This document shows positions 63,794 to 64,000 of a DNA stretch of 64,000 nucleotides, piece after piece. Origin of the DNA: Escherichia coli (GTDB lineage Bacteria; Pseudomonadota; Gammaproteobacteria; Enterobacterales; Enterobacteriaceae); assembly GCF_001677475.2 (NCBI RefSeq), contig NZ_CP015229.1. The stretch is one strand, 5' to 3'. The position numbers were made by a program, and so were the translations under genes. A model generated the notes under the pieces. It had not been told where the DNA came from. It ran no database searches and saw only the letters and a list, made by a program, of their open reading frames with translations. How positions within the stretch are numbered: the stretch's first letter is position 1; each line of letters opens with the position of its first letter.

Positions 63794-63815
63794 TCCCACG
63801 TAATGAATAAAAAAG

Positions 63816-63839
63816 CAGCGGCCAATGCCGCTGTTTTAT
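63816..63839 (+). terminator. Rho-independent terminator after mom
   Basis: CAGCGGC-CAAT-GCCGCTG hairpin followed by TTTTAT. Confidence 0.6.
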
Positions 63840-63915
63840 CTTGAATAACTTCCATATGCGCGCTTCTAACTTATCTTGAAAGAATTCCATATCTATCTTG
63901 AATAATTTTGCGCGC
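63836..63915. repeat. Three direct repeats of TATCTTGAA(T/A)(A/G)A with associated TTCCATAT and GCGCGC motifs
   Basis: Repeat copies start at 63837, 63872 and 63894; a degenerate copy (TATCTTCAAG) at 63936. Confidence 0.5.
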
Positions 63916-64000
63916 TTTATATACCGCTCGATGAGTATCTTCAAGCTCGATATTCCCATCGTAAACATCTGAGTAGACAAGATCGCCGGTGTGATCTGTA

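Follow-up and report, generated by a model that had tools for sequence, protein, structure and literature searches.

Phage Mu leaves a textbook scar in host DNA, with TG...CA ends enclosed by a 5-bp target duplication. At the right end of Mu (attR) the R3 site is inverted, and at the left end the spacer between L1 and L2 is the place where HU binds. Among transposable prophages in general, the recognisable scar is a duplication of 5 bp (Mu) or 6 bp (B3), and the usual rule by which such prophages are searched for combines TG...CA ends with a 5- or 6-bp duplication (PMC8705779). A second group of Mu-like phages is represented by the Yersinia phages vB_YpM_5 and vB_YpM_6 (MT374853/4) and by Mu_JNE082796, a Mu-like insert in Stx phage (LC727881). 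The sequences of this lineage are public, but we found no published analysis of their ends: the paper on the Yersinia phages analyses neither the ends nor the transposase (PMC10434027), and in the literature on vB_YpM, SuMu, PluMu and the Pseudomonas saltoviruses we found no account of the ends described below or of a 4-bp duplication.

Here we analysed a stretch of 64,000 nucleotides from Escherichia coli (contig NZ_CP015229.1), referred to as the window, and in particular its final segment, 63794-64000, which follows mom, the last gene of a Mu-like prophage. We are confident that this segment comprises the mom terminator, an 83-bp attR (63837-63919) and target DNA from the pmgC gene of a P1-like phage-plasmid, and that the prophage to which it belongs is either a recombinant or a product of misassembly (Table 1). 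The attR is that of a non-Mu lineage of Mu-like phages, for which we use the name RM9088-type. It is a feature of an ordinary kind, from an undescribed sub-lineage.

Table 1. Coordinates of the prophage, its ends and the adjoining target DNA, numbered from the first nucleotide of the window.
Feature	Position	Strand	Description
Mu-like prophage, hybrid of two lineages	29014..63919	+	34,906 bp; chromosomal homology ends at 29013
Mu-type left end (attL)	29014..29190	+	starts TGTATTGATTCACTTGAAGTACGAAAA; MuA-type cores at 29032, 29137 and 29177
MuA-type transposase, 662 aa	30292..32280	+	91.7% identical to MuA, 23% to the RM9088-type transposase
com	62962..63147	+	ORF; homologous loci annotated Com; aligned with Mu Com
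mom, last gene of the prophage	63068..63793	+	95% protein identity to Mu Mom; GTG start set by homology with annotated 726-nt genes
mom intrinsic terminator hairpin	63812..63837	+	-17.3 kcal/mol, z = -4.2
R3, putative 22-bp transposase-binding unit	63837..63858	-	core TTCAAGATA at 63837-63845, read inward; core starts 75 nt from right terminus
R2, putative 22-bp transposase-binding unit	63872..63893	-	core at 63872-63880, 40 nt from terminus; abuts R1
R1, putative 22-bp transposase-binding unit	63894..63915	-	core at 63894-63902, 18 nt from terminus
Terminal TTTA	63916..63919	+	right terminus after 63919; nine copies diverge here
P1-type pmgC fragment, target DNA	63920..64000	-	codons about 70-96, interrupted by the prophage end

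Three copies of TATCTTGAA lie 3' of the mom terminator, at 63837, 63872 and 63894, where 0.08 copies would be expected by chance. The pattern by which an earlier note on this DNA had described them, TATCTTGAAnnA, has exactly three matches in the whole 64 kb, all of them within 63794-64000, and none of 100 shuffled sequences reached this count. Since three copies are seen against 0.08 expected, and 0/100 shuffles did as well, the repeats are real and not a product of chance, as the note had described them. The motifs that it reported alongside the repeats are also present, each in two copies: TTCCATAT at 63850-63857 and 63885-63892, and TGCGCGCTT at 63857-63865 and 63909-63917. The three units are not evenly spaced, R3 lying 13 bp further inward than the abutting R1/R2 pair. 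The mom terminator that precedes them has a bidirectional form: an A-run lies on the upstream side of the hairpin and a T-run on the downstream side.

Comparison with other genomes places the right terminus of the prophage at 63919, within the window. BLAST searches with the last 1.1 kb showed that com-mom matches Mu, D108, SfMu and many E. coli prophages, and that few genomes match through the repeats to 63919; the alignment with Mu stops at 63818. In RM9088, VL40, FDAARGOS_943, STEC346 and STEC388, the 83-90 nt past the terminator are 97-100% identical and end in ...GCGCGCTTTA. When these five were aligned with the window, whose sequence up to the terminus reads …TTTTGCGCGCTTTA, all six copies diverged right after TTTTGCGCGCTTTA. 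Their flanks are six different ones: the region upstream of nrfB, a Vgr gene, a MolR pseudogene, an alanine racemase gene and fliH in the five genomes, and pmgC in the window. Three IMG/VR contigs with the same right end likewise lose homology at ...GCGCGCTTTA and continue into other DNA. Because independent copies, six in chromosomes or the window and three in IMG/VR, stop matching at one nucleotide with different host DNA beyond it, we assign the right terminus to this position. The earlier note had seen no terminus following the repeats; in fact, the terminus lies among them, inside the very interval that it described.

This right end is not the canonical one. No attR of the Mu/D108 kind, with sites YGTTTCAYTNNAARYRCGAAAR and a terminus ...CGCCGCTTCA, was found after mom: the interval 63794-63919 contains no match to the MuA consensus RYRCGAAAR, and the terminal 18-mer of Mu has no match anywhere in the window with up to 3 mismatches. 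The suggestion of a non-canonical right arm in the earlier note was therefore sound, since MuA consensus sites are missing and the end is not ...CGCCGCTTCA. That note had also considered that a canonical terminus might follow at once and that every Mu-like right end might share the repeats. The terminus is indeed close by, though of a non-canonical kind, and the repeats are confined to a rare sub-lineage: this right end was found in 5 of 5426 complete E. coli genomes, in addition to the three IMG/VR contigs.

Beyond the terminus, the 81 nt at 63920-64000 are 97.5% identical to P1 and 100% identical to some P1-like plasmids, and P1, P7 and hundreds of plasmids match. When the minus strand is translated, 27/27 codons agree with residues about 70-96 of PmgC (27 protein letters not shown), and the target DNA is identified as pmgC by nucleotide identity, protein identity and correct reading frame alike. 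PmgC is truncated after about residue 96, with a 15-residue tail read from the prophage end before a stop codon. In this arrangement, a putative morphogenetic gene of a P1-like phage-plasmid holds the end of a Mu-like phage, one temperate phage within another. A 70-aa minus-strand ORF at 63768-63980 was considered as a gene and rejected as an artefact, as it spans the junction of prophage and pmgC, out of the pmgC frame; its LFKI repeats derive from the DNA repeats. Among complete genomes, 503 of 517 matches to the P1-like right-flank DNA are on plasmids. Chromosomal copies exist as well: in E. coli ST2747, a P1-like sit-pmgB-tub-pmgC block lies at 2129561-2134641 of the chromosome beside lambdoid tail-gene remnants, so P1-like DNA is not always plasmid-borne.

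The organization of the repeats is fixed among relatives. Across the five genomes and the three IMG/VR contigs, the copies of TTCAAGATA start 18, 40 and 75 nt from the right terminus and 18, 89 and 140/141 nt from the left terminus; one contig (L014) preserves the cores and where they lie, although the intervening sequence has diverged. A matching attL accompanies this attR in each of the five complete genomes. The motif is thus found at both ends in five of five relatives, always oriented inward, whereas the left end of the window's own prophage is Mu-type and does not carry it. Within the 43-kb RM9088 prophage, which sits between nrfA and nrfB, the TTCAAGATA 9-mer is present at the six end sites and at only one other position; its left end begins TATGACTAGGTAAATTATTCAAGATA and its right end, read inward, begins TAAAGCGCGCAAAATTATTCAAGATA. 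The prophages of the relatives are heavily damaged by insertion sequences. The mom gene of RM9088 holds ISEc12 and IS66, and in STEC388 a rearrangement mediated by IS26/ISCro1 has put the left end about 0.9 Mb from the right end, for which reason the two were read separately in this strain.

We found that insertions of these relatives are flanked by 4-bp target duplications. All five chromosomal insertions showed one (TAAG, GAAA, TTCA, ATTC and CAGG), and for the two checked against empty sites in K-12, at nrfA/nrfB and fliH, exactly four bases had been duplicated. A 4-bp duplication is likewise annotated by the GenBank depositors of LC727881. As a control, the Mu-type prophage of UMNF18 was flanked by a 5-bp duplication, GGGAA. 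The termini of the lineage are TA (or TG/TA). In the window, by contrast with all of these insertions, the flanks read GCGAT on the left and TATAC on the right, and there is no duplication.

Compared with Mu, the RM9088-type ends are similar in layout and different in sequence. As in Mu, the right end comes directly after mom and its terminator (the terminus is 126 bp past the mom stop codon, against 115 bp in Mu) and the last 85 bp or so before the terminus hold three sites of about 22 bp, of which R1 and R2 adjoin each other with a 22-bp period. Its counterpart on the left resembles that of Mu in having one terminal site, then a long spacer and then two sites. The terminal bases, read inward, are also alike (TGAAGCGGCGCA in Mu, TAAAGCGCGCA here), and the L1-L2 spacer has ACCGGGA...GGGAT.TGAT.GGATT in common with Mu. 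Conservation of this spacer, which separates the first left-end site from the second, can be recognised between the window (29040-29100) and RM9088, as ACCGGGA..GA..ATT....GGGAT.TGAT.GGATT, though the sites themselves differ. Unlike in Mu, however, the core is TTCAAGATA, which does not match the MuA consensus (...RYRCGAAAR); the three sites of the right end are all direct repeats; the element ends in TA where Mu ends in CA; and 4 bp of target are duplicated instead of 5 bp.

The transposase of the RM9088-type phages is equally distinct. It is 694-698 aa long and 23% identical to MuA, and Pfam searches matched only a partial HTH_Tnp_Mu_1, a weak rve core and Mu-transpos_C; HTH_Tnp_Mu_2, the I-gamma end-binding domain, and DDE_2 were not found by these searches. 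In contrast, the transposase encoded in the window has the full MuA architecture (HTH_Tnp_Mu_1, HTH_Tnp_Mu_2, DDE_2 and Mu-transpos_C). The nearest phage relatives of the RM9088-type transposase are those of vB_YpM_5/6 (80% identical) and of the Mu-like insert in Stx phages (73%). In vB_YpM_5 and Mu_JNE082796, the cores lie in the identical 18/40/75 geometry, and vB_YpM_5 has the same terminal ATTTTGCGCGCTTTA, its left end beginning TATGA..AGGTAAAT. Both differ from the window in their core, which is TTTGATAC in place of TTCAAGATA. The window attR belongs to the end type of the vB_YpM_5/Mu_JNE082796 lineage, as a sub-type with a different core. This difference has a counterpart in the protein: over transposase residues about 81-200, phages with the TTCAAGATA core share 95-100% identity with one another but 38-58% with vB_YpM_5, whereas residues 200-640 are about 98% identical across both core types (compared for L005:415-2499, minus strand, and L017:2431-4524, plus strand). 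Residues about 81-200 therefore co-vary with the DNA core and are a candidate for a swappable end-recognition module.

Given their position at the phage end, their number and spacing, their left-end counterparts and the co-varying transposase segment, the three repeats fit the cores of three 22-bp transposase-binding units, by analogy with the sites of Mu. A guess in the earlier note that the repeats could be binding sites for a recombinase agrees with this reading, as position, number, spacing and left-end counterparts are all as would be expected of transposase sites.

The same evidence bears on two other accounts of the segment after mom. According to the earlier note, the repeats could open accessory DNA, for example a defence module, situated between mom and a terminus beyond the window. 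A canonical Mu attR is indeed absent from the window, which ends 81 nt past the repeats, as this account would have it. However, nine independent copies cease to be homologous at 63919 and run on into unrelated sequence, the DNA from 63920 to 64000 is P1 pmgC (97.5-100% identical, in the correct frame), and the 126 bp from mom to the terminus hold the terminator and the three repeats with no credible ORF, the one at 63768-63980 being an artefact. We consider it extremely improbable that cargo begins here. From these comparisons, nothing is hitch-hiking behind mom; an interrupted P1-like pmgC follows instead, and nothing here suggests that a defence module lies immediately beyond the window. 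Alternatively, the repeats could encode a small RNA or act as operators through which mom or an adjacent gene is regulated; in favour of this, the minus strand at 63804-63928 weakly matches STnc430 in Rfam. This match scores 23 bits against a gathering threshold of 47 (E = 0.13-0.5) and is driven by the terminator hairpin, and a search for a promoter-like site found none. Moreover, the core recurs in mirrored orientation at the opposite end of the relatives, at a fixed distance from the terminus, which is unlike an operator of mom, and a regulatory or RNA-coding role is accordingly very unlikely. STnc430 is a family of Salmonella small RNAs; the match covers the whole model and is the only Rfam match, probably due to chance, although the family might itself derive from the end of a Mu-like prophage.

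In the window, this attR is orphaned: the left end, the repressor, A and B are all Mu-type. The window attL is 98% identical to the left end of the UMNF18 prophage, and its cores match RYRCGAAAR. In sliding comparisons, the UMNF18 prophage, whose left and right ends are both of the Mu type, matches the window at 98-100% identity between 29014 and about 33500, and from about 34000 to 63921 the nearest sequence is the RM9088 prophage at 97-100%, with the last 4 kb essentially 100% identical. The Mu-type module, attL-c-ner-A-B, extends to about 33.3-33.5 kb, and the remainder, including attR, is RM9088-type. The crossover at about 33.3-34.5 kb is a rough position, as the late region of the window is a mosaic with respect to both reference prophages. 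The stretch from the tail-fibre genes to com (58473-62839) lacks both a gin invertase and an invertible G segment. Genes for a 763-aa tail fibre and a DUF4376-type assembly protein lead straight into the mom regulatory region, a layout shared by RM9088 and UMNF18. The two flanks are also of different origin, core chromosome on the left (the ansP/yncE side) and P1-like DNA on the right. A search of the rest of the window for nested or tandem prophages found neither a Mu-type attR nor an RM9088-type attL. Because a Mu-type left end and transposase are combined with an RM9088-type attR, between unlike flanks and without a duplication, we conclude that it is a composite of two Mu-like prophages, made either by recombination or by faulty assembly.

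How the mismatched ends arose can be judged less firmly. Replicative transposition by Mu yields cointegrates in which each copy has one donor flank and one target flank, and Mu-mediated fusion of replicons leaves a single copy with mismatched flanks and no duplication. The hybrid element might in this way be mobile itself, its transposase pairing the Mu-type attL with the TTCAAGATA-type attR and fusing the chromosome with P1 in a cointegrate. The window does share with such fusions, and with recombination between prophages, a single copy with flanks from two places and no target duplication, and the pmgC junction falls exactly at the attR terminus. That exact junction, however, is equally explained by an earlier, ordinary RM9088-type insertion. 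The encoded transposase is, moreover, of the MuA type with an I-gamma end-binding domain, while the attR contains no MuA-type site core and has a cognate transposase that is 23% identical to MuA and lacks the I-gamma Pfam domain. Unlike in replicon fusion by Mu, the two ends of the window belong to different specificity classes, which points to recombination of two prophages or to misassembly and not to transposition of a single element; a mobile hybrid is hard to credit. Much likelier than a functional hybrid is that the TTCAAGATA and TTTGATAC phages form an uncharacterised enterobacterial lineage of transposable phages that end in TA, cut their target with a 4-bp stagger and have an end-recognition module that can be swapped. 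Misassembly deserves more weight. Two intact Mu-like prophages could have been misjoined after collapse of their late regions, which are 92-100% identical over about 30 kb between UMNF18 and the RM9088-type, a classic condition for chimeric contigs. Several genomes with this attR hold 2-4 copies of com-mom, and Mu-like prophages therefore do co-reside. Furthermore, the combination at this junction is in no public record that we searched: the exact attR/pmgC junction is absent from genome, viral and metagenome contigs, from complete E. coli genomes and from PLSDB plasmids. Nor was the predicted reciprocal junction, P1 ...CAGCGGGTATA joined to an RM9088-type attL, found in viral or genome contigs. 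Nothing in the sequence speaks against an assembly artefact, but homologous recombination in vivo gives the same sequence. We regard the artefact as a real though lesser possibility, and lean modestly towards a genuine recombination event in the cell.

Our preferred reading, a recombinant or misassembled prophage ending in an RM9088-type attR, suggests the following course of events. An RM9088-type phage would have inserted into pmgC of a P1-like phage-plasmid, and a separate Mu-type prophage would have resided near yncE/ansP. The two prophages would then have been joined through roughly 30 kb of 92-100% identical late and semi-essential regions, either by homologous recombination in the cell (as a cointegrate, an inversion or a deletion) or by an error of the assembler. 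By analogy with R1-R3 of Mu, the DDE transposase of the RM9088-type lineage itself may assemble on the 22-bp units, cleave after ...CTTTA-3' and join the end to its target with a 4-bp stagger.

These findings indicate that the Mu-like prophages of E. coli comprise at least two non-interchangeable transposition modules joined to near-identical late genes, the second of which differs in its end motif, ends in TA and duplicates 4 bp of its target. A rule based on TG...CA ends and a 5- or 6-bp duplication would miss such ends, as the earlier note did. In the window, a P1-like phage-plasmid gene is interrupted by a Mu-like phage and, if the assembly is right, two prophages have recombined, stranding a prophage with mismatched ends.
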